The position numbers and the translations under genes were made by a program. Below the pieces are notes generated by a model. The model did no database searches. It saw only the letters and a program-made list of their open reading frames with translations, and was not told where the DNA came from. From Spirochaetaceae bacterium (GTDB lineage: Bacteria > Spirochaetota > Spirochaetia > Treponematales > Breznakiellaceae), in the NCBI GenBank assembly GCA_031276945.1, contig JAISMB010000143.1:1-12228 (forward strand): a DNA stretch of 12,228 nucleotides, given 5' to 3'. Shown here in pieces: positions 1 to 12,228 of the stretch (the stretch's first letter is position 1; each line of letters begins with the position of its first letter).

Positions 1-120
1 TTAAGTCAGACCTCGCCCCCCTTAAGTCAGACCTCGCCCCCCTTAAGTCAGACCTCGCCCCCCTTAAGTCAGACCTCGCCCCCCTTAAGTCAGACCTCGC
101 CCCCCTTAAGTCAGACCTGT
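1..120. repeat. Tandem 21-bp direct repeat TTAAGTCAGACCTCGCCCCCC: five perfect copies plus a partial sixth. The array reaches the window edge and may continue to the left.
   Basis: Perfect 21-bp periodicity is visible from positions 1-105. The partial last unit (TTAAGTCAGACCTG) contains the TGA stop of the adjacent minus-strand MCP gene. Confidence 0.95.
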
Positions 121-2312
121 TCCACCTTAAAACGGGAAACCTCCCGCATAAGCGCCGCTATCTGCCGGTGGTTCTCCCCGCTTATGTCCTGCACCTGGTT
201 CACCGCGGTGTTTATCTGCTCGGCTCCGCTGCTCATCTCCTCCATACCGTTCCCTATCTCAGTGGTGATTTTTCCTAGATTCTTACTTTCCTGCATCACC
301 GCACTGCTCCCCTGGAGCATCCCTTGGGCGCGCTGTTTCACTTCTCCAGTGATCTCGTTCAAACTGCCTATGGATTCCAGTATGGCGTTGCTCTCCGCCT
401 CCTGCCCTTCCATCGCTGTACGGATAGCAGCCTCCTTGTCCGTTACCAGCCGCACCTGCTCACTGATGTCCTCAAAGTTCAGCATTACCTCATTCGTCGC
501 TCTCGTGATCGTGTCTATTGAGTCTTTTATTTTGGCAAGCACTTCACTTATGGTCTTGGACTGCTCACCGGAAGACTCGGCGAGTTTGCGTATCTCATCA
601 GCGACAACGGCAAAGCCTTTGCCCGCCTCCCCCGCGTGCGCCGCCTCAATCGCCGCGTTCATGCTTAACAAGTTCGTCTGGTTTGCGATGTTTTCCATGA
701 CCCCGTTGATCTCAAATAACCCCGCTGATTCCCGGGCTATCTCTTGAATATCCCGCGAAACTTCCTGTAAGCCGCTCCTCCCCACTTCAGATGCGTGGGC
801 AAGTTTTTGGACATTGGCGGTGTTTTCTCCCAGACTTTGAGTTACGTCATGGATACTGTCCAGCATCTGTTCCACAGCGGATGAGGATTGGCTGACACAG
901 GAGGTCTGTTTTTCAATCTGCCGGTTTAAGGTCTCAAGGCTCTCCAGCATCTGTTCCATAACAGAATCGGTATTATGGACGCTCTGCACCTGTCTTTCAG
1001 TTTTGGAGGTGATGTTCCAAATGTTCGCGGTTATTTCATTAACGGTGGCGGCGGTATCCGCAACGTTCTCTTCAAGCTCCCCGCCTGTTTGGGAGAGGGC
1101 GTTCACCTCGTTCCGTATGGAGAGGACCAGGCGTTTTATCTGGTCGACGGTGAAGTTCAGATAATGGGCGAGGTCGCCCAGTTCATCGCGGGACTGTATC
1201 GTGATCTCTTTGGTCAAGTCGCCTCCGGCAATGTCTTTGAGAACCGCCATCGTATGGGTAAGAGGGTTGCTTATGGAACGGGCGGTGAGGATCGCCCCTG
1301 CGGACATAAAGATAATGGTAAGGACGCCGATGATGACGCAAATCCTAATCATCCGGTAAACCGGCGCCATGATGGCGCCTTGTGAAACGCCGACAACCAG
1401 CGTCCACGGTTGCGGAACACTCCCGATGGTGAACGGCACGGCATAGTACTGCATGACGCTTTCTGATTGTGCGGGACGGTACGAGAAGGAGGCGGCGGTT
1501 CCTGTGGTAACGGCGTTGACCACCGTCTCAAGGTAGGGTCCGAAGGTATCCTGCTCCGACTCGCGCATGTTCTTTCCCAGCCGGTCCGGGTCGGTGTGCG
1601 CGGCGATGATGCCGCCTGAACTGAACAGCAAGGCAAAGCCTTCTTCGCCGAATGGTTTGATTTTGCTGATCATAGCTTGCAGGGTTGATATTCCCATGCT
1701 ACATCCAATGGAGCCTATCTGGGCGCCGTTATCTTTTACGATGCTTCCCATATTTGCAATGACGCTTCTTCTTCCATCGCTTGCCGTATACACAGCAGGA
1801 TCAAGCATATAGTCCTCATAAAAATTAAACTTAAGATTCATCGCTAGAACCATGTTCCAGTCAAAGCCTACTATATAATTTAGTATAACTTGGTTATTGA
1901 CCAATGACCACGCGGGAATAAAGCGTCCGGTCTCATCGGTTCCGGGTGTGTTGGCATAGTCCTCGTCCAGCCCGTCCAGCCCGTTGGGGGACCAGTTGGC
2001 ATATATGCTGTTTAGTTCAGGATTCGCTCTGAGCGCATGTCTCATCATAAAGTTGAATTGTTCCCGCCGTTGTTCAACCGGTATGTCTTTGTACCCTTCC
2101 ATTACTTGTGCGAGGGTACGCGTCGTACCTATATACGTTTCAAACCATTTTCCGATTTGTTCGCCGGTATGGAGCGCAATGCTGTACACCTGCTCGTCCG
2201 CTAAACGGACGATTTCCTGCCGCGATTCAATAATCGTAAGTCCGGCTAAAAGACTAATGCCAATAATATTGATAACGCTGATGACCACCACCAGCTTAAT
2301 CCCGATTTTCAT
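111..2312 (-). CDS. Methyl-accepting chemotaxis protein: TM1, periplasmic Cache-like (probably double-Cache) sensor, TM2, HAMP, MCP signalling domain.
   Basis: 733-aa ORF with an ATG at 2310-2312 preceded by AAGGGAG. There is an N-terminal hydrophobic helix and a second TM around residue 320 ([23 protein letters not shown]). A HAMP-like segment follows ([20 protein letters not shown]...[12 protein letters not shown]). The highly conserved MCP signalling motif [33 protein letters not shown] is present. The gene ends RFKVEQV-TGA. Confidence 0.9.
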
Positions 2313-2604
2313 AAGACAGTCTCCCTTGGAATGATGATGAGAAAAACAGATTGCGCTGCATTTCCGTCTGTAAGATTAGTGGTACAGCTGTGCGGTTAAG
2401 CACAGATAGGAGGGGTAGAACAAAGGGCGATGTTCGAGTGAAGTCCAAAAAACTTATTCATAATAATACTCCTCTAACATTATCTTATCGCGATTCCCGT
2501 CTGGAATCGACTTTTCACCTAGTCTAGCATTGTGTTCCTCTCTTAGTCTAGCTAAATCTCACCTCACTCGGACTGGGCAACGATTCCAGCTCGGAGTGAA
2601 AGAT

Positions 2605-3277
2605 TCATGTGGGCTCGGGTGTTGTCCTAGGGGGTTTCGTCAAAAAGAAGGAAGATAAATCTGAGATAGAGAGCGGCGAGAAAGGAATCAGAACGTTTAG
2701 CATACCGAGTAGTACTACCTCTCTGTACTGCTTAAGCCACCGAAATACATGCTCAATGAGATGGCGCTTCTTATACAGCTCTGTGTCATAAGTCCTTACC
2801 ACTTTCCGACTACGCTTGGAAGGAATAACTACCTTACTACCTCCTGCACAGGCTGTGTCTATTACCTGGTTCACGTCATACCCCCTATCGGCAATCAAGA
2901 CTTTTACTGATAACCCTGCCATTAAGGGCGGTGCATAGGCGCAATCCGCCTCCTGCCCCGCTGAAACTATGATACGTACCGACTTTCCCTTCTTAATCTA
3001 TAGCAAGGTGGACTTTCGTATTGAGCCCCCTTGTGTACGCCCTATCCCGCCAGCGGCAAAATCTTCGGTATGTATTTTTCCAGTCGCCGTATTCAGGAGG
3101 TAAATCTCTCCAAGGAACGCCGGGTCTGATAATCCAGGATACAGCATTGATAAAGCGTCGATTGTCATGAGCCATTCGACCCTGTTTACCTGCCGCTTCT
3201 GGAAGTAAGTCTTTTATTTTTTCCCACAGCGTATCATTGATGTCGTGTCTGTGCAGTACTTTTCCGTTTTCTTTCAT
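2605..3277 (-). pseudogene. IS5-family DDE transposase, disrupted. It is split into ORFs 2993-3277 and 2605-2922, with an internal deletion of about 128 bp and a C-terminal frameshift.
   Basis: Relative to copy 2, the segment DVWKTIAAELIGEVDTQWLMIDATYSKVHADG...QAIG is missing. The deletion lies between GATAG microhomologies (junction near 3040-3050). Near 2730-2760 a 2-bp indel shifts the frame after LKQ, so the ORF ends in unrelated residues instead of the RGIA(T)RY... tail. Confidence 0.75.
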
Positions 3278-3322
3278 CTTGTTATCTTACTTTATTTCCT
3301 TCCTTTTGACGACACTCCCTAA
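2627..3322 (-). mobile_element. IS5-family (IS427/IS1031-like) insertion sequence, copy 1, degenerate.
   Basis: Terminal inverted repeats (C)TAGGGGGTTTCGTCAAAAAGAAGGAAGATAA at 2627 and TTAGGGAGTGTCGTCAAAAGGAAGGAAATAA (reverse complement) ending at about 3322. These match the ends of the second copy at 4208-5027. The internal ORFs carry the IS5-type N-terminal RRFINAVSWIIRPGVPWRDLPPEYGDW and C-terminal IADRGYD...YDTELYKKRHLIEHVF..LKQ motifs. Confidence 0.8.
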
Positions 3323-3344
3323 CATATTCCGGTAATAAATTTAT

Positions 3345-4205
3345 GGAGGTGATCCACAAAGAATGATGAACCTCAAATAAAGCCGTAATTGATGTATAAA
3401 GAAAGCAATATCAAAGGCTTTTCAGTGGTTGAACAGCTTTTGGAAAAACAGCAGTTCAGTTCCTCCGAAATGTCCGCCTTACCTGATGCCTCAACCGGTA
3501 ATTATTCCTCTCTATCCCTCCCATATGCTTTTTTCCTATGTTATGGTTGTCCTCCGCGAAAGCTGAAAGAAAACTGTCCCTATCGTCCGTCGCTATCCTG
3601 TCATAGCTTATCCCTATCTGTTTTATCCTCTTTACTTAACTTTTTTGCGGTTTTCAGGTCCACCTTTCCACAGACAAACGCCACAATTTTCTCGCTTCCC
3701 CGCTGATACGCGTATATCAGCCATAGGTTGTTCTCCTTTTTTCCTCTATACGTCCAACACTCGTCTATTTCAAGATGATCGTAGTAACTTCTCTTCGGTT
3801 TTATGTTATGTTTGGTTGATTTCAGTACTTTTAAGACTTTGGTGATACTGATGTCTGGTATGCCCATTCCCCGGACAAGCATGATTTTTACCAGTTCGAC
3901 TACCCGGGAAAGGCATCCCCGATAGGGTTTTTCATGGTCGCTTAAAAACTGACGTCCGCGGTCTTTACACTGGTAATTTTGCTTTCCCTTGCTCTTTTTC
4001 CCGTTTCGAGTTAAGGTGGAACTATGGCAATGGGGGCATTTGAGTTCTAATGTAAGGAAGAGCGTCGCTACTCCTCCTGTTGAGAAGGCTGTTAAACGGG
4101 GAATGGGCTTTGTGGTCCTCAAAATGCCAAAGCACAAAACCCATTGCGACTTTCTTCTTTTTCACTTTACAGCTTCATGGGCTGTACTGAGAAAGCGTCA
4201 CCGCC
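3345..4205 (-). mobile_element. IS1-family-like element with a frameshifted transposase.
   Basis: Putative terminal inverted repeats GGAGGTGATCC (3345-3355) and, in reverse complement, GGCGGTGACGC (4195-4205). These resemble the IS1 GGTGATGC termini. The coding content is IS1 InsA/InsB-like. Confidence 0.55.
3601..4137 (-). pseudogene. IS1-family transposase fragment (InsA-like zinc finger fused to the start of the InsB-like DDE domain). The remainder continues out of frame to about 3400.
   Basis: The 178-aa ORF contains CPHCHSSTLTRNGK...YQCKDRGRQF, a Cys4 zinc finger like IS1 InsA. It also contains IDECWTYRGKKENNLWLIYAYQRGSEKIVAFVCGK, comparable to IS1 InsB [20 protein letters not shown]...VVAHVFGER. 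After its stop at 3601, another minus frame reads ...HNIGKKHMGGIERNNYRLRH, which resembles IS1 InsB ...ISKRYTQRIERHNLNLRQH. The transposase is therefore frameshifted or internally deleted. Confidence 0.65.
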
Positions 4206-4207
4206 AT

Positions 4208-5027
4208 TAGGGAGTGTCGTCAAAAGGAAGGAAATAAAGTAAGATAACAAGATGAAAGAAAATGGAAAAGCATTGCACAGACACGACATCAGTGATAACC
4301 TGTGAGAAAAGATAAAAGACTTACTGCCAGGAGCGGCAGGTAAACAGGGTCAAATGGCTCATGACAATCGACGCTTTATCAATGCAGTATCCTGGATTAT
4401 CAGAACCGGCGTTCCAGACAGAGACTTACCTCCTGAATACGGAGACTGGAAAAATACACACCGAAGATTTTCCCGCTGGCGGGATAGAGATGTCTGGAAA
4501 ACAATAGCCGCTGAACTTATCGGGGAAGTGGATACCCAGTGGCTTATGATAGATGCAACTTATAGTAAAGTCCATGCAGACGGATGTACAGCGGTTGGAG
4601 GAAATCAAGCGATAGGGCGTACACAAGGGGGCTCAATACGAAAGTCCACCTTGCTATAGATAAGAAGGGAAAGCCAGTACGTATCATAGTTTCAGCGGGG
4701 CAGAAGGCGGATTGCGCGTATGCACCGCCCTTAATGGCAGGGTTATAGGTAAAAGTCTTGATTGCTGATAGAGGGTATGACATGAACCAGGTAATAGACA
4801 CAGCCTGTGCAGGAGGTATTAAGGTAGTTATTCCTTCCAAGCGTAGTCGGAAGGTGGTAAGGACTTATGACACAGAGCTGTATAAAAAGCGCCATCTTAT
4901 TGAGAATGTGTTTTGGTGGCTTAAACAGTGGAGAGGTATTGCTATTCGCTACGCTCAACGCTCTGATTCCTTTCTCGCCGCTCTCTATCTCAGATTTATC
5001 TTCCTTCCTTTTGACGACACGCCCTAG
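4208..5027 (+). mobile_element. IS5-family (IS427/IS1031-like) insertion sequence, copy 2, degenerate and inverted relative to copy 1.
   Basis: Left inverted repeat TTAGGGAGTGTCGTCAAAAGGAAGGAAATAAAG begins at about 4208. Right inverted repeat ...TTCCTTCCTTTTGACGACACGCCCTAG ends at about 5027. The two ends match each other with a single mismatch. The copy abuts the IS1-like right end with a 2-bp gap. Confidence 0.8.
4252..5027 (+). pseudogene. IS5-family DDE transposase, inactivated by a premature stop and at least two frameshifts.
   Basis: The ATG at 4252 gives MKENGKALHRHDISDNL and then TGA at 4303-4305, where copy 1 reads TLWEKIKDLL. The homology then continues in three different frames. 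ORF 4354-4659 reads RRFINAVSWII...QAIGRTQGGS. The next frame reads KVHLAIDKKGKPVRIIVSAGQKADCAYAPPLMAGL-stop. ORF 4758-5027 reads IADRGYDMNQV...RHLIENVFWWLKQWRGIAIRYAQRSDSFLAALYLRFI. Confidence 0.8.
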
Positions 5028-5060
5028 TTTAACAGCCCTCTCAACATCTTTAGATAAGAT

Positions 5061-5130
5061 AAGAGAGGGGATAGGTCAGACCTTGCCCCTTCGCCTTAGC
5101 CCGCGATGCAACTCCCCCCATAGGTCAGAC
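5061..5130. repeat. Two degenerate copies of the TAAGTCAGACCTCG repeat core (ATAGGTCAGACCTTGCCCCT at 5061 and ATAGGTCAGACTTCCTG at 5110).
   Basis: Direct inspection shows ATAGGTCAGACC twice, 49 bp apart, immediately outside the IS5 copy 2 end and 70-140 bp from the atpG stop. Confidence 0.6.
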
Positions 5131-5201
5131 TTCCTGATCCGACTAGGATGGGCTTGAGAACTTCGTGCGTTACTGCTTTGTTTCTTGAGAGAGGGAGGCA
5201 T

Positions 5202-6083
5202 TTAAAGCCCCAGAGAACCGCTTATAATTTCAGTCATTTCCTGCGTAATAGTCGCTTGGCGGATGCGATTGTAATAAATCTGCAAGTCTGCAAGCATTTT
5301 TTCAGCATTCTTTGAAGATTCGTTCATTGCTTTCATGCGAGCGCTCTGTTCACTGGCATAAGCCTCGACTAAACAGCCGTAAATCATGCCTTTGAGGTAA
5401 AGCGGCACGAGCGCCTCAAAAACAGTCTCAGCAGAAGGCAGGTATTCAAAGCTCAACGCAGTCCGTTGCTGCCCGCCGCTTTCGATAATTTCAGCCTGTA
5501 TTTTCTGTGCATCAAGCGGCAGCAGGTGGTGGATAGTCGGCACGAGTTTAACGGTACTGTAGAGGTGGGTATACACAATATAAATCTCGTCAAACATGCC
5601 CCAGAGGTACTGCATTATAAGGTAATGGGTGATAAGCTGGGCATCATCAAGAGTCGGCAACTGTGAGTTAAAGGAAAAATTCTCGACTAGAGGGTAGGGG
5701 GCATGGCTAAAATAACGATAAGCGCTGTTCCCCACCGGCAGCAGCACGGGGTTGCGTAGCTGGGCGCAGAGGGTATTGACCGTCTTAAAAATGTTGGCAT
5801 TGTAGCCGCCAGCCATACCTTTGTCGCTGCTTATTATCAATACAGCGCTGTGAAACGCGGTGTTTTTTTCTATCCGTTTAATGAATTCATTGGGTATCAT
5901 GCCGGCACCGACGACAATATCGTATAAAGACTTCTGTATCCGCATGAAAAACGGTTCTGTATCTTCAAGAATACGCCGTGCTTTACGCAATTTTGCCGTA
6001 GAAATAAGGTCCATCGCTTTGGTTACCTGCAATGTTTGTTGTATCGCCCGCATCCTGAGGCGTAGTTCTTGTCCGTTTGCCAT
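5202..6083 (-). CDS. atpG: F-type ATP synthase F1 gamma subunit.
   Basis: The sequence is collinear with bacterial gamma chains. The N-terminus MANGQELRLRMRAIQQTLQVTKAMDLISTAKLRKARR compares with E. coli [34 protein letters not shown]. The C-terminus is ASEQSARMKAMNESSKNAEKMLADLQIYYNRIRQATITQEMTEIISG. The ORF track extends to 6119 by using a TTG start. The ATG at 6081-6083 (MANGQ...) gives a canonical length of 293 aa and is preferred. Confidence 0.9.
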   Translation of the reverse strand: MANGQELRLRMRAIQQTLQVTKAMDLISTAKLRKARRILEDTEPFFMRIQKSLYDIVVGAGMIPNEFIKRIEKNTAFHSAVLIISSDKGMAGGYNANIFKTVNTLCAQLRNPVLLPVGNSAYRYFSHAPYPLVENFSFNSQLPTLDDAQLITHYLIMQYLWGMFDEIYIVYTHLYSTVKLVPTIHHLLPLDAQKIQAEIIESGGQQRTALSFEYLPSAETVFEALVPLYLKGMIYGCLVEAYASEQSARMKAMNESSKNAEKMLADLQIYYNRIRQATITQEMTEIISGSLGL

Positions 6084-6254
6084 GATTTCGGTGGAAAAAG
6101 GAAGGGAGAGGGCGCGCAAAGTTCGCTTCTTCTGTCCTCTTTCCTGCTCCTGTCTTATAAGATTTACTCAAACCGAGAGGGATTTTTAAGTCTCGTGCCT
6201 GCTTCTTCCTGCGCTCGTTTCACGTGCGACATGCGCTCTCATATTCACAGGCTT

Positions 6255-6273
6255 CCCGCCAACGGCGGGTTTT
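6255..6273 (+). terminator. Plus-strand terminator-like GC hairpin plus T-tract (CCCGCCaacGGCGGG-TTTT), lying between two minus-strand genes.
   Basis: A perfect 6-bp GC stem with a 3-nt loop is followed by TTTT on the plus strand only. On the minus strand the same hairpin is followed by AAGCC, with no U tract. Confidence 0.35.
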
Positions 6274-6427
6274 AGTTAAACCGGTTGAACCGACCGTGCG
6301 CCGTTCTCAAGCACGATCCAACGCTGAAGCGGCTCGTTCGTCCGTTGTATGCCCTTGTTGTTCAAAGGCATTGCTTGCCACTGCTGAGAGGGTATCATTA
6401 TTCATTATGAAGTATAATACTCGTTTG

Positions 6428-7918
6428 CTAGGCAGTTTTTTTATACTTTTCTATCGCAGTCTGTAGTTCCGACTCGTTCTCAAGGGAAAGTGCGCCGGTT
6501 TTTTTAATGCTCTCCATAAGCGGCGCATACTGAACATTAAGATAGGCAAGAAATTCACGCAGAAAAGACCGCACTTTTTCTTTTGGCACATCAAGCAGGA
6601 GGTTATTGGTTATCAAAAACAGAATTGCCACTTCTTCTTCAAGAAGGAAAGGAGAAAACTGCGGCTGCTTGAGTGTTTCCATAATACGTTCGCCTTGGGC
6701 GAGCTTTTCTTGCGTAGCCTTATCCAGATCGCTGCCGAATTGGGCGAAAGCCGCCATTTCCCGGTATTGTGCAAGGTCAAGTCTGAGCCGACCTGAAATA
6801 TGCCTTATAGCTTTAGTTTGTGCAGAACCGCCGACCCGGCTGACTGAAAGCCCTACATCAATGGCAGGACGAAAGCCGGCATTGAACAGTTCTGTCTGTA
6901 GAAAGACCTGTCCATCGGTAATTGAAATAACATTAGTAGGAATGTATGAAGAAATATCACCAGCTTGGGTTTCCACAATGGGAAGAGCTGTAATAGAACC
7001 GCCGCTTCTCAGTTTTGCAGCGCGTTCTAAAAGCCGAGAATGGAGGTAAAACACATCACCGGGAAAAGCTTCCCGTCCGGGCGGACGGCGCAGCAAGAGT
7101 GATATGGTACGGTATGCGACCGCATGCTTTGAAAGATCATCGTAGACCACAAGAACATCTTTGTGCTGGTGCATAAAATGTTCAGCCATAGCAACGGCTG
7201 AATACGGCGCTAAGTACTGCAAAGCTGCCGAGTCTGATGCTGCTGCAAGCACCACAAAGGTATAGTCTAAAGCGCCATACTTTTCTAAATTGCGCACGAT
7301 TGCTGCTACTGAAGAAGATTTTTGCCCGATAGCGCAGTAAATACAGATAATATCAGCATCTTTTTGGTTAATGATTGTATCAAGAGCAAGGGAAGTTTTT
7401 CCGGTTTGTCTATCGCCTATGATTAATTCACGCTGTCCACGACCAATGGGAATCATAGCATCAATGGCAATAATTCCGGTTTGTAAGGGCGTATCAACAG
7501 CACCACGCTCAATAACCGGTGCAGCAGGCGACTCAACCGGCAGCATCTCTTCCGGCTCAAGAGCCCCTTTACCATCAACCGGCACACCGAGCGGATTCAC
7601 TACCCGTCCTAATAAGGATTGTCCAGCCGGAACTGAAGCGACTTTTCCGCTACCGCGTACTTCTTCGCCATCTTTTACTAACGAATCACCAGAAAGCAGT
7701 ACACATCCGACCGTTTCTTCGGTTAAGTTCAGCACCATGCCAGTTGCACCGGAGGCAAATTCCACCAGTTCGCCGTATACAGCTTTATTGAGTCCGCGGA
7801 TAATCGCCACAGAATCACCGACTTGTACAACAGATCCCACCGAAAAAGACGGTACTTTAGTTTCCCAGTTTTTCAGTTCTTCTTGTAAGATCGCGGTTAA
7901 ATTGCCAAAATCAAGCAT
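6428..7918 (-). CDS. atpA: F-type ATP synthase F1 alpha subunit.
   Basis: 496-aa ORF with an ATG at 7916-7918 preceded by AGGAAAGGG. It carries the Walker A motif [11 protein letters not shown] and the alpha-signature block [53 protein letters not shown]...[45 protein letters not shown]. Confidence 0.95.
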
Positions 7919-7964
7919 ACCCTTTCCTCTTGATTAACGAATGAGCCGGTTTTCCTAACCTGCA

Positions 7965-8004
7965 TAAGAAAAAGATCCTCCGGCACGCACCGGGCGGAAG
8001 ATCC
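7965..8004 (-). terminator. Rho-independent terminator of the LRR-protein gene.
   Basis: On the minus strand, GGATCTTCCGCCCGGtgcgtgCCGGAGGATC forms a roughly 12-bp stem with one mismatch. It is followed by TTTTTCTT and lies 116 nt downstream of the LRR stop at 8120. Confidence 0.6.
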
Positions 8005-8119
8005 CCAAAGGAAGTCTAGTTGTAAAATAACTATACCAGAAATAACGAACGGAACGCAAGCCCTCTTGACTGAAAAGCACGGCAGCCTCTCAGAAATCCT
8101 CAAGAGGTCTGACCGTGAG

Positions 8120-10486
8120 CTATCTTTTCCATGAGCCATTCTGCTGCATCTTATAGGTTCCGGATTTTTTACCGTTCGAGTTATACAGCTCAGTCAGATT
8201 ATTGTTAAAGGCAAAAGCGCCCATACTTATATTCTGAGCCGCAAGGTTTACGGTGACGAGCGGGTTACGGTAAAAAGCCCCGGCGCTAATGGTAAGAACA
8301 CTGCGCGGTATGCTGATACTCGTCAGCTTGTTACCAGAAAAAGCATATTCACCAATGGTAGTAATGCTGGGCGGAAGGGTCAGGCTTGTTAAGCTGTTAT
8401 CATAAAACGCATAATTGCCAATGGTAAGAACGCCGTGCGGCAGACTGAGTGTTTTGAGCTGATTGCTGTAAAAGGCATAATCGCCAATTTCACTGACGCT
8501 CTTAGAAAGAGTAAGTGTTGCGATCCTATTCATGGAAAAAGCTTCAGCGCCGATTTTCGTTACCTGATGCGGAATAGTTACCGCGGTCAGTTGATTATCA
8601 TAAAATGCGCAGTCGGCTATGCTTGTCAAACTTTCAGAAAGAACAACCGTGCTTAATTGATTAGAACGAAAGGCGTATGCTCCAAGAGTAGTAACGCTCT
8701 GGGGAATAACGACCATGAACAACCTATTATGAGAAAATGCATCTGCGCCTATGACGGTCAGACCATCAGGCAGCTCAAGCTTGGTTAATCTATTGCCGGA
8801 AAATGCCCCGCTGCCTATAGTCGTAACGTTGTCGGGAATATTAACCATGGTTAAGAGGTTATTATAAAAAGCATAATCGCTAATGGACTCGAGGCTGTTC
8901 GGCAAGCTCAAGCCGGTTAATCTGTTGCCGGAAAAAGCTCCGCTGCCTATAAACTTGAGACTGTGCGGAAGGCTTATGCTGCTTAACAGGTTATCGGCAA
9001 ACGCACGCTCGCCGATAGTGGTAACGCCGCTCGGAATACTGATCGTACTTAACTGATTGCCGGAAAAAGCTCCCGCACCAATGGTCGTAACGCTGCGGGG
9101 AATGGTCAGACCAGTGAGTTTATTTCCGGCAAAAGCATAGTCGCCAATACTTTGCACAGTGTGCGGAATACTCACGGCAATAAGTTGATTATTGGCAAAC
9201 GCATAACTGCCAATACTTTCTACCGTATCAGGAATAACCAGCGCCAAAAGATTATTCAGCCGGAATGCGCCGTTTCCTATCATGTTCAGCGTCTGGGGCA
9301 GATCAATATCCGTCAAATTATTTTCAGCAAACGCATCATCATCAAGGGACTCAAGTCCGGAAAAAAGCTGCACTGCGCTTAATTGATTGTAGGCAAACGC
9401 CTGTTTTCCAATATGCTTAACGCTCGGCGGAATAGTAACGGCGCTCAGATTATTGGCATAGAAGGCGTGGTCTTCTATAGACACGAGCGTTTCAGGCAGA
9501 GTTATGAGTGCAAGCTCGTTGTCATAGAATGCTTCTTTGGCAATAGTGGTAACCGGCAGCGCTTCAATATACGAAGGTATTTTCAGGGACTGCACGAAAT
9601 GCGTAAAGCCGGTAATGCTGACGGTACTGCCGCGCACTTCCCAGCGCAATCCCTCAGGCACAGGCTCAAAAACTGGCACGCCGCTGAGGGTAAACGATAA
9701 GCCTGACATGTTTTCCCATGCGTCCGCAAAAGTTTGGTAATACACAGTCCCGCTTTTATGCTGCCTGCTCTGCGCAAGATTCATAAGCCGTGTATCAAGC
9801 ATAGTCTTTTCCCCAAGCTTCCAAGCGCCTGAAAGCAAGACAAAACCGGTCTGTCCCTGCTCTTCCAAGACCTGTTCAAGGCTCTTGCGGCTGAAGACGC
9901 TAAAGGCGCAGGTATTTGCCAAATCGATAGCCAGCAGGTGCAGTAAGGTTTCTACCTCATGCCGGTTCAAGGTTTCAGAAACGAATTGCGCCGGTATGAG
10001 CGAGAGGGGCGCGGGCGTGCGCGCTGCGGCAGCGGCGCTCACCAGCGCGATTTGCTCCGCCAGAGCGGGCAGGGCTTGCTGCACGTCTTGCGCTCTTGTA
10101 TACGCACAGTAGGCGCCGGCGATTTGCTGCGCCTGTGCGGGCTTGGTCAGCGAGAGAATGAGTAAGCGCTGCCCTGAAAAGGCTGCGGTTGTGCCTGTAA
10201 GGACGTAGTCGGCTTGCAAGTCCCGACTCAGCTTGTCAAGGACAGTCGGAGAATATCCGTGAGGAGTCGGCGTTACGGCGAGCGCCTGCGTCAGCGCCTC
10301 ATGCGGCACGGGCGCAAACACGCGGTTGAGCGCCGGCTCAGTTGCGAGCAGGTCTGCCCCGTTTGGAGCGGCTTCATCAGCAGCGCCCACAAACGGCAGG
10401 ATGAGAAGACGGGGTTTTTCTTGTGCAAAAACCGGTAGTGCGAGGCAGAGCAAGCAGTACAGCATGCAGCGGGTTACGGCTTTCAT
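8120..10486 (-). CDS. Secreted BspA-type leucine-rich-repeat protein, with an N-terminal TolB-N-like/LPF domain and about 20 23-residue LRRs.
   Basis: 788-aa ORF with an ATG at 10484-10486 preceded by AAGGAG. The signal peptide is MKAVTRCMLYCLLCLALPVFA|QE. The N-terminal 300 aa contain KPRLLILPF...LQADYVLTGT, the LPF...DYVLTG signature of TolB-N-like periplasmic modules. About 20 tandem units of the pattern AFxxNxLTx(V/I)xIPxSVxxIGxxAF follow. This is the BspA/TpLRR-type LRR, with N at the position where those families often have C. Confidence 0.85.
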   Translation of the reverse strand: MKAVTRCMLYCLLCLALPVFAQEKPRLLILPFVGAADEAAPNGADLLATEPALNRVFAPVPHEALTQALAVTPTPHGYSPTVLDKLSRDLQADYVLTGTTAAFSGQRLLILSLTKPAQAQQIAGAYCAYTRAQDVQQALPALAEQIALVSAAAAARTPAPLSLIPAQFVSETLNRHEVETLLHLLAIDLANTCAFSVFSRKSLEQVLEEQGQTGFVLLSGAWKLGEKTMLDTRLMNLAQSRQHKSGTVYYQTFADAWENMSGLSFTLSGVPVFEPVPEGLRWEVRGSTVSITGFTHFVQSLKIPSYIEALPVTTIAKEAFYDNELALITLPETLVSIEDHAFYANNLSAVTIPPSVKHIGKQAFAYNQLSAVQLFSGLESLDDDAFAENNLTDIDLPQTLNMIGNGAFRLNNLLALVIPDTVESIGSYAFANNQLIAVSIPHTVQSIGDYAFAGNKLTGLTIPRSVTTIGAGAFSGNQLSTISIPSGVTTIGERAFADNLLSSISLPHSLKFIGSGAFSGNRLTGLSLPNSLESISDYAFYNNLLTMVNIPDNVTTIGSGAFSGNRLTKLELPDGLTVIGADAFSHNRLFMVVIPQSVTTLGAYAFRSNQLSTVVLSESLTSIADCAFYDNQLTAVTIPHQVTKIGAEAFSMNRIATLTLSKSVSEIGDYAFYSNQLKTLSLPHGVLTIGNYAFYDNSLTSLTLPPSITTIGEYAFSGNKLTSISIPRSVLTISAGAFYRNPLVTVNLAAQNISMGAFAFNNNLTELYNSNGKKSGTYKMQQNGSWKR

Positions 10487-10941: not shown

Positions 10942-11994
10942 TTATTCTTTCTTGTGCAGTTCCGCCAGAGCTTGCAGCCCAAAGATAGAACCGTCTTTGA
11001 GTTCTTCGGTGATTTCATTCGGCACGAGCATCATGGAATTGCCCGCCTTTAAGCCTTCGTTCAGAATGGAGAGCGTTTTTAATTTCAGCGCATTCATATC
11101 GTGCGCATACACCGCAGCAGCATCCGCCAGCCGATTGGCAATATCAATCTCAGCCTCGGCAAGCAGGATACGGCTCTTCTTTTCCCGTTCAGCCTGCGCA
11201 AGACGCGCAAGAGAATCCTGCAATCCCTCAGGAATCTGAATGTCGGTAATTTCAATATGCTGGATGGTAATGCCCCATTCGGTTGTCTTCTCGTCAACCG
11301 TGGCTTGCAGTTTCCGTTCAATAACCCGACTGTCGCGCAAAAACGTGGTCAGGTCAGTGCTGGAAACCGCATTGCGCAGCGCGGTCTTCGATGATAAAAT
11401 CACCGCCTGCTCATAGTTTTCAACTTCCAAAGCGGCTTTCTCCGCATCCCAGACAAGCCAAAAACAGAGCGCGTCAACCTGCATCGTAACCGAATCAAGA
11501 CTCAGCGTTTCCTGTGTGGAAAAATCAGAGACCCGTATGCGCATATCAATCCGCTGGGCAATACGATCCAGCAGCGGGATCAGGAAGAAAACCCCCGGAC
11601 CACGCACCCGATAGAAACGACCGAGCCGCAGCACCACCGCCCGCTCCCATTCATCACATTTTTGCAGCACCGGCGCCACAAAAACCACGATACCGGCACA
11701 GAGGGCGCTCAACGTATAATACGGAAAGCCCAAAACCGCGCCGGTAATAACGGCAAGAAAAAAAATCTTAACCGCATCCACCCACCGCGGGAAGAGCAGC
11801 ATACCGATAAGCGCGCTCACCGGAATACCGGCAAGCACGCCCCATTCTCCGAGCGTCGGCGTATCGCCGCGGCTTATGCGCAGCGCCAGCACGACCATAA
11901 GACTGAGCGCAACCATGCCGATACCGGTTGTATTTAATACCCAGTCCGACCTTTTGCTAGCCCGCGGCTTATTTTTTATCAGCATATCCTTCAT
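10942..11994 (-). CDS. SPFH/band-7 (stomatin/HflKC-like) membrane protein with a three-TM N-terminal extension.
   Basis: 350-aa ORF with an ATG at 11992-11994 preceded by GAGGAGG. There are three hydrophobic helices in the first 120 aa. An SPFH core follows (RAVVLRLGRFYRVRGPGVFFLIPLLDRI...VTMQVDALCFWLVWDAEKAALEV). The C-terminal coiled-coil, rich in Ala and Glu (LARLAQAEREKKSRILLAEAEIDIANRLADAA), is typical of the family. Confidence 0.8.
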   Translation of the reverse strand: MKDMLIKNKPRASKRSDWVLNTTGIGMVALSLMVVLALRISRGDTPTLGEWGVLAGIPVSALIGMLLFPRWVDAVKIFFLAVITGAVLGFPYYTLSALCAGIVVFVAPVLQKCDEWERAVVLRLGRFYRVRGPGVFFLIPLLDRIAQRIDMRIRVSDFSTQETLSLDSVTMQVDALCFWLVWDAEKAALEVENYEQAVILSSKTALRNAVSSTDLTTFLRDSRVIERKLQATVDEKTTEWGITIQHIEITDIQIPEGLQDSLARLAQAEREKKSRILLAEAEIDIANRLADAAAVYAHDMNALKLKTLSILNEGLKAGNSMMLVPNEITEELKDGSIFGLQALAELHKKE

Positions 11995-12228
11995 AAATCC
12001 TCCTCATTGCAGCGGATAATCATGCAGCGGCTCAAAGACTTTCGCGCGTTTCACGCCCCTTTCTCCGAGCGTCGGCGTCCCGCCGCGGCTGATACGCAGC
12101 GCCAGCACGACCATAAGACTGAGCGCAACCATGCCGCTGCCGCTTGTATTTAATACCCAGTCCGACCTTTTGCTAGCCCGCGGCTTATTTTTTATCAGCA
12201 TATCCTTCATAAATCCTCCTCATTGCAG
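11845..12228. repeat. Direct tandem duplication with a 216-bp period that spans the SPFH gene's RBS, start codon and first 50 codons. Copy 1 is 11845-12012, a 48-bp spacer follows, and copy 2 is 12061-12228 at the window edge.
   Basis: The 168-bp blocks are about 93% identical. Both end with the same 72 nt: CCAGTCCGACCTTTTGCTAGCCCGCGGCTTATTTTTTATCAGCATATCCTTCATAAATCCTCCTCATTGCAG. The upstream copy yields ORF 12004-12210. Confidence 0.9.
12004..12210 (-). pseudogene. Truncated duplicate of the SPFH-protein N-terminus (68 aa). It is in frame with the downstream full-length gene and separated from it by TGA plus three codons.
   Basis: MKDMLIKNKPRASKRSDWVLNTSGSGMVALSLMVVLALRISRGGTPTLGERGV... compares with the full gene's MKDMLIKNKPRASKRSDWVLNTTGIGMVALSLMVVLALRISRGDTPTLGEWGV.... 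It has its own GAGGAGG RBS copy. The stop is TGA at 12004-12006, followed by GGA GGA TTT ATG. Confidence 0.6.

Follow-up and report, generated by a model that had tools for sequence, protein, structure and literature searches.

The window, a stretch of 12,228 bases that makes up the whole of a metagenomic contig from a Spirochaetaceae bacterium (JAISMB010000143.1), carries the genes of two subunits of the F1 ATP synthase, atpA and atpG; all real genes of the window lie on the minus strand. atpA (6428–7918, minus strand) is intact and encodes an alpha subunit of 496 amino acids, which scores above cutoff with Pfam and with the NCBIfam equivalog model. atpG (5202–6083, minus strand) encodes a gamma subunit of 293 amino acids if read from a conserved ATG at position 6083, and it is recognized by PF00231 and TIGR01146. 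We consider it very probable that these are the working alpha and gamma genes of a normal F1Fo ATP synthase, the genes of which have been split into separate transcription units in a small lineage of spirochetes of the termite-gut type.

The translated atpA contains all three domains of the Pfam description (ATP-synt_ab_N, ATP-synt_ab and ATP-synt_ab_C; PF02874, PF00006 and PF00306) with E-values of 7e-11, 8.6e-84 and 2.6e-44, together spanning residues 27–491. It scores 727.5 bits against the equivalog model TIGR00962 (cutoff 484.45), which identifies it as an F1Fo alpha subunit, and it has the alpha-type Walker A motif (P-loop) GDRQTGKT. Residues 7–495 align with solved alpha chains, including that of Bacillus PS3 (E about 1e-188), and the protein is 100% identical with NCBI entry MDR2151120.1. 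The atpG product matches PF00231 with an E-value of 3.6e-78 and scores 244.3 bits against TIGR01146 (cutoff 194.45), which identifies it as an F1 gamma subunit; its residues 1–290 align with residues 1–281 of the solved PS3 gamma chain (E 6e-45). The atpG open reading frame (ORF) can be read over 5202–6119, with a TTG at 6119, but this extension is interrupted by a stop in the closest relative, L004 (contig JAITAM010000039.1 of Ncb351_bin45, a metagenome-assembled genome (MAG) that serves as a GTDB species representative). The ATG at 6083 agrees with the NCBI call (MDR2151119.1), and the N-terminus that follows from it, MANGQE(L/I)R, is common to the window, L004 and a further relative, L005. 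Both genes are full-length and canonical. A preliminary description of the window, made from its letters, had called them unmistakable F-type genes on the strength of the P-loop and the canonical gamma termini, and the equivalog cutoffs and the full-length matches to solved chains bear this out.

Two other assignments were tried and rejected. As N-ATPase subunits, the products score 596.3 against 750.5 (TIGR03324, alpha) and 82 against 282.35 (TIGR03323, gamma), and against the mycoplasma F1-like models NF045936, NF045863 and NF045933 they reach 337.6, 433.8 and 19, with cutoffs of 520, 600 and 95, respectively.

The pair stands apart from all other atp genes. Searches with tblastn, using atpB, atpE, atpF, atpH, atpD and atpC queries from four relatives, found no remnants of these genes in the 12.2-kb window, and searches with the relatives' genes likewise found no remnants of missing subunits in the L004 and L005 contigs. 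The separation from the delta/b and the beta/epsilon genes, first noticed in the preliminary description, is thus confirmed window-wide. So are the neighbours that it named: atpA is preceded by the gene of a BspA-type leucine-rich repeat (LRR) protein (8120–10486, minus strand; PF13306), and atpG is followed by a flank of 175 nt (5027–5201, minus strand) that leads to the terminal inverted repeat of an insertion sequence (IS) of the IS5 family. No intrinsic terminator was detected in these 175 nt. An 80-residue ORF at 7897–8139 was considered as a decayed delta gene and rejected; it has no Pfam or NCBIfam match, and its frame is broken in L004. Neither a canonical nor an N-ATPase layout fits the locus, as had been claimed: the window holds no partner subunits, and the N-type models stay below cutoff. 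The N-ATPase order beta-epsilon-(extra genes)-a-c-b-alpha-gamma is not found here, since the LRR gene lies upstream of atpA and the window has no atpF, atpE, atpB or atpD.

L004 (L004/L007; 91% identity in alpha and 83% in gamma) shows the same isolated pair, without an IS element. All three frames are closed in the 143 bp upstream of its atpA, and there is no abutting delta gene such as every canonical operon has. No atpD is present in the 940 bp 3' of its atpG, where a convergent gene is found instead. A stand-alone alpha-gamma unit between unrelated genes, the hallmark of a three-unit split, is therefore present in both the window and L004. The 823 bp that follow atpG in L004 (2588–3410) are non-coding and have a GC content of 37.7%, compared with 47.8% in atpAG; they have no similarity to the 3' flank of atpG in the window.

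Relatives whose alpha subunits are 75–80% identical carry atpBEFHAGDC, namely Treponema primitia ZAS-2 (L001), L002, L006, L008, L009, L010 and L092; the L006 contig stops inside the gene after atpG, so that its atpD is partial and no atpC is seen. Because such relatives keep the canonical operon, the isolated arrangement is derived. It is also uncommon and a real departure from the norm. As a background for adjacency we used 80 unrelated metagenomic atpD loci, 74 of which have enough upstream sequence, and in 72 of these 74 atpG lies directly upstream of atpD. The metagenomic atpD scan included one relative at 82% identity, with a canonical operon; the rest are about 70% identical and from unrelated habitats. 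The preliminary description had taken the LRR and chemotaxis gene content as a hint at a spirochete lineage, for several of which a V-type ATPase is the norm, but the nearest relatives, T. primitia ZAS-2 included, carry complete F-type operons.

Among 5.8 billion proteins searched with gamma, the window forms a clade of three with L004 (83%) and L005 (72%), and all other sequences are at most 67% identical. A scan of GTDB with gamma returned only the L004 contig and two canonical Treponema MAGs. L005 (79% identity in alpha) has the gene order atpBEFHAG with no atpD behind it, and the same order without atpD is seen in L090 and L091, two independent assemblies with 67% identity in gamma. In L090 (6001–7257), as in L091, a convergent gene lies 97 nt after atpG, where atpD is expected. 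The break between atpG and atpD hence extends beyond the clade of the window to the Treponema-type lineage of L090 and L091. Downstream of atpG, the four contigs (window, L004, L005 and L090) are not related in sequence and have no context in common. A local rearrangement as the origin of the break after atpG is not supported, as the same break occurs in L005 and L090.

The separation of atpAG from atpH is older than the split of the window species and L004 (dS about 0.7–0.9), because L004 has the same isolated pair together with homologous non-coding DNA upstream. With such an early separation, the IS copies beside atpG in the window cannot be to blame. The preliminary description had offered, as one of two options, an operon fragmented by the neighbouring rearrangements with the remaining genes elsewhere. 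Fragmentation with the other genes elsewhere is the option that fits best, but the neighbouring IS elements fail as its cause, given the isolated pair without IS in L004.

To the question of ongoing selection, for which the ratio of nonsynonymous to synonymous substitution rates (dN/dS) had been suggested as a measure, the answer is clear. Between the window and L004, dN/dS (Nei–Gojobori) is 0.077 for atpA (dS 0.69) and 0.104 for atpG (dS 0.88). The same method gives 0.147 and 0.142 for the canonical operon pair L001/L002, so that dN/dS of the isolated pairs does not exceed the canonical comparison. Neither ORF is interrupted in the window or in L004. Along the proteins, conservation varies as it does in canonical relatives, with the N-terminus of alpha as conserved as the rest, and the nucleotide-binding and catalytic-interface core is 96–100% identical. 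Judged by outgroup distances, alpha has accelerated slightly at most and gamma not at all. atpA and atpG are under strong purifying selection, in the pattern of a working enzyme.

These data bear on the second option of the preliminary description, a relic pair. According to it, atpA and atpG are decaying leftovers in a lineage that no longer has the other F1Fo genes and depends on a different ATPase. No other atp gene is present on the contig, the unit has IS elements and an unexplained insertion in and around it, atpG has no Shine–Dalgarno sequence and the clade is tiny, with three sequences among the 5.8 billion proteins. However, the ORFs have stayed intact in two species that have diverged to a dS of about 0.7–0.9 since the isolation, dN/dS of 0.08–0.10 does not exceed that of canonical operons, the catalytic-interface core is almost unchanged and a promoter-like block has been kept upstream. 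We therefore regard decay as unlikely.

The pair could also be a redundant partial duplicate, an extra copied fragment in a genome that has a complete atp operon as well. IS-rich surroundings favour duplications, but purifying selection of this strength in two species is unexpected for a redundant copy. Moreover, the pair clusters with the genes that L005 has inside its operon, as orthologues should (72–76% identity in gamma, compared with at most 67% for others), and in the alpha database search only the window's own alpha and that of L004 exceed 79% identity to the window alpha. A duplicate is consequently an improbable explanation as well.

Alpha and gamma without beta can neither hydrolyse nor make ATP. 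Since the genes are nevertheless selected, the simplest explanation is that the partner subunits are encoded elsewhere in the genome, and the purifying selection thus points to unlinked beta-epsilon and a-c-b-delta genes in the same genome.

From the atpA stop to the conserved atpG ATG, the spacer (6084–6427, minus strand) measures 344 nt, compared with 74 nt in L004 and 2–11 nt in canonical relatives and L005. The preliminary description was right to call this gap unusually long. In the alignment, about 270–283 nt of the window (roughly 6159–6440) have no counterpart in L004, and the C-terminal codons of atpA differ (KKTA* in the window and KKL* in L004). We regard the extra sequence as a lineage-specific insertion tolerated by the putative bicistron. 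Searches for the origin of the insert as a miniature inverted-repeat transposable element or IS found neither terminal inverted repeats nor another copy within the window; its edges show only an imperfect direct repeat, TATAAAA/TATAAGA. Rfam gave no match (E ≤ 1) in the insert or in the whole window, and the insert has only a mild predicted structure (z = −2.3). Within the spacer, at 6255–6277 on the plus strand, a GC-rich hairpin CCCGCCAACGGCGGG is followed by TTTTAGTT, an arrangement that resembles an intrinsic terminator opposite to the atp strand.

Just 5' of the atpG ATG (6093–6144, minus strand), a pyrimidine-rich tract is predicted to pair with a purine-rich tract upstream of it to form a hairpin, and an analogous hairpin is predicted 5' of atpG in L004 (z = −2.5). 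One may speculate that a weak initiation of gamma, limited by such a structure, would suit the 3:1 stoichiometry of alpha and gamma.

The non-coding DNA 5' of atpA is homologous between the window and L004. It is poorly conserved with the exception of a 36-nt block (8030–8065, minus strand), in which 30 of 36 positions are identical. This block, TTGCGT-N18-TGgTATAGT, is a candidate sigma-70 promoter of atpAG, with a −35 element TTGCGT (8054–8059), an 18-nt spacer and an extended −10 element TGgTATAGT (TG at 8037–8038, TATAGT at 8030–8035). A simple consensus promoter scan missed the candidate, the −35 element of which matches the consensus at three of six positions. Farther downstream, a hairpin is predicted at 7973–8004 (minus strand), followed by a U-run at 7964–7972. 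In L004, too, a hairpin is predicted at this position, with a stem that differs in sequence (z = −3.1). The hairpin could be a stabilizer of the 5' untranslated region or an attenuator; alternatively, it could terminate transcription of the LRR gene, and the promoter assignment would then have to be revised. The Shine–Dalgarno sequence of atpA is GAGGA.

Taken together, these observations are consistent with the following course of events. An ancestral Treponema-type operon atpBEFHAGDC probably broke twice. The first break would have cut the link to atpDC and left the intermediate atpBEFHAG, as it is found in L005 and L090. In the second, atpAG would have parted from atpBEFH in the ancestor that the window organism shares with Ncb351_bin45. 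We infer this order of the two breaks from the arrangements in the relatives. atpAG is now probably transcribed as a bicistron, with a promoter of its own some 110 nt upstream of atpA. Transcription would start near 8023, about 7 nt past the −10 element, giving a leader of about 105 nt that includes the hairpin. Both the promoter and the co-transcription of atpAG are inferred. The alpha and gamma subunits most likely assemble with beta, delta, epsilon and the Fo subunits encoded elsewhere in the genome.

Several points weigh against a working synthase with split genes. In the window and L004 contigs that were searched, atpD, atpC, atpB, atpE, atpF and atpH were found for neither the window genome nor Ncb351_bin45. 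A search with the L005 atpH for an unlinked atpBEFH unit of the clade returned the query alone, at an E threshold of 1e-10 that was too strict. The view upstream of atpA in L004 is limited to 143 bp. The L005 contig breaks off in a tandem array at 586 nt past atpG, so that atpD could follow immediately after. Neither the window nor L004 has a recognizable Shine–Dalgarno sequence within about 50 nt of the atpG start. The promoter was assigned by its resemblance to the consensus type in two sequences, and it is separated from atpA by a terminator-like hairpin.

The surroundings of the pair contain abundant mobile and repetitive DNA. About 2.7 kb of IS material (about 2600–5040) lies downstream of atpG. 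It includes an IS5-family element of about 830 bp in two inverted copies (2617–3322, minus strand, and 4207–5037, plus strand), which are 93% identical; one of them lacks about 120 bp of its interior. The element has DUF4096 and DDE domains and the terminal inverted repeat TAGGGAGTGTCGTCAAAAGGAAGGAA (4208–4233 and 5001–5026). A fragment of an IS1-like element (3601–4137) is situated between the two copies, and the right-hand copy is flanked by a 20-nt inverted repeat (4078–4097 and 5027–5046), as though this copy had landed inside another small element. Intergenic tandem arrays with units of 21–22 nt, TTAAGTCAGACCTCGCCCCCC and GGTAAGTCAGACCTCGCCCTCC, and the palindromic core GGTC(A/T)GACC occupy gene boundaries and the contig end (1–118, 10548–10827 and 10844–10924); single copies of the core occur near 8104–8114, 5070–5090 and 5110–5128. 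A two-unit pattern had no match in a metagenome collection, which hence does not include the window's own sample. The L005 contig ends in a similar 21-nt array (5306–5449) with a different unit.

Such repeats raise the question of whether the contig is a chimera, joined at IS copies or repeats during assembly or binning, so that the neighbourhood is false. The two inverted IS copies with 93% identity and the tandem arrays at both contig ends would allow this, and the junctions 3' of atpG could be mis-joined. However, the isolated pair recurs in L004 (JAITAM010000039.1), which was assembled independently from a different sample and species and shares the non-coding sequence upstream, and there is no long repeat at the junction of the LRR gene and atpA. 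An artefact is thus very unlikely.

The remaining genes of the window encode a methyl-accepting chemotaxis protein (111–2312, minus strand) and an SPFH/Band-7 protein (10942–11994, minus strand). The 5' end of the SPFH/Band-7 gene lies within a tandem duplication with a period of 216 nt (11836–12228; 1.8 copies at 95% identity), which continues to the contig end and may be real or an effect of assembly. The LRR protein has 788 amino acids and a signal-peptide-like N-terminus, and its gene shows an internal DNA periodicity of 66/132 nt, which is due to the repeats.

Split atp gene sets are known from other phyla. In a survey that covered over 2,000 bacterial genomes, Niu et al. (PMC5709465) found the arrangement 'epsilon-beta' plus 'gamma-alpha-delta-b-c-a' to be dominant in Bacteroidetes and Cyanobacteria, and documented a three-unit pattern, 'beta-epsilon' and 'a-c-b-delta' along with 'gamma-alpha', in some Bacteroidetes genomes. 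The break points are the same here: L005 and L090 correspond to the two-unit pattern, and the window and L004 to the stand-alone alpha-gamma unit of the three-unit pattern. In contrast to those sets, the split described here arose independently within Spirochaetota from a canonical operon and is known from the alpha-gamma unit alone. It is a new occurrence, in Spirochaetota, of a known kind of operon split and not a new system.

The operons of T. primitia ZAS-2 and of termite-gut Treponema MAGs resemble the window in their subunits (75–80% identity in alpha and 56–67% in gamma, with the same domains, P-loop and gamma termini), but the window has no atpH upstream and no atpD downstream, a spacer of 344 instead of 2–11 nt and a candidate promoter of its own. 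N-ATPase operons also have alpha and gamma as the last genes of the cluster, at its 3' end, and alpha is not preceded by a delta gene; unlike them, the window scores below the N-type and above the canonical cutoffs, and atpF, atpE and atpB are not found upstream. The F1-like ATPases of mycoplasmas (the MSC_0619 family and the gliding ATPase MMOB1660) share the feature of alpha- and gamma-like genes outside a normal atp operon, whereas the genes of the window score far below the respective cutoffs and are ordinary F1 orthologues.

A selected alpha-gamma pair could, in principle, work non-canonically in genomes from which beta, delta, epsilon and Fo are truly missing; for instance, it might have a heterologous ATPase as its partner or act as a module with a regulatory or chaperone-like role. 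In a milder version, the leader hairpin and the structured atpG start, which lacks a Shine–Dalgarno sequence, would set the 3:1 ratio of alpha and gamma in a new way after the loss of translational coupling. We consider these ideas extremely improbable, and only a selected pair in a genome truly without beta and Fo would, if true, be remarkable.

The split of atpAG itself opens no new mechanistic question. It documents a very stable operon at three stages of disintegration in close relatives, with canonical operons, atpBEFHAG and atpAG side by side. At the last stage, atpAG stands alone, apparently with a new promoter and under normal selection. For fragmented MAGs, this is a reason for caution when the completeness of a pathway is called.

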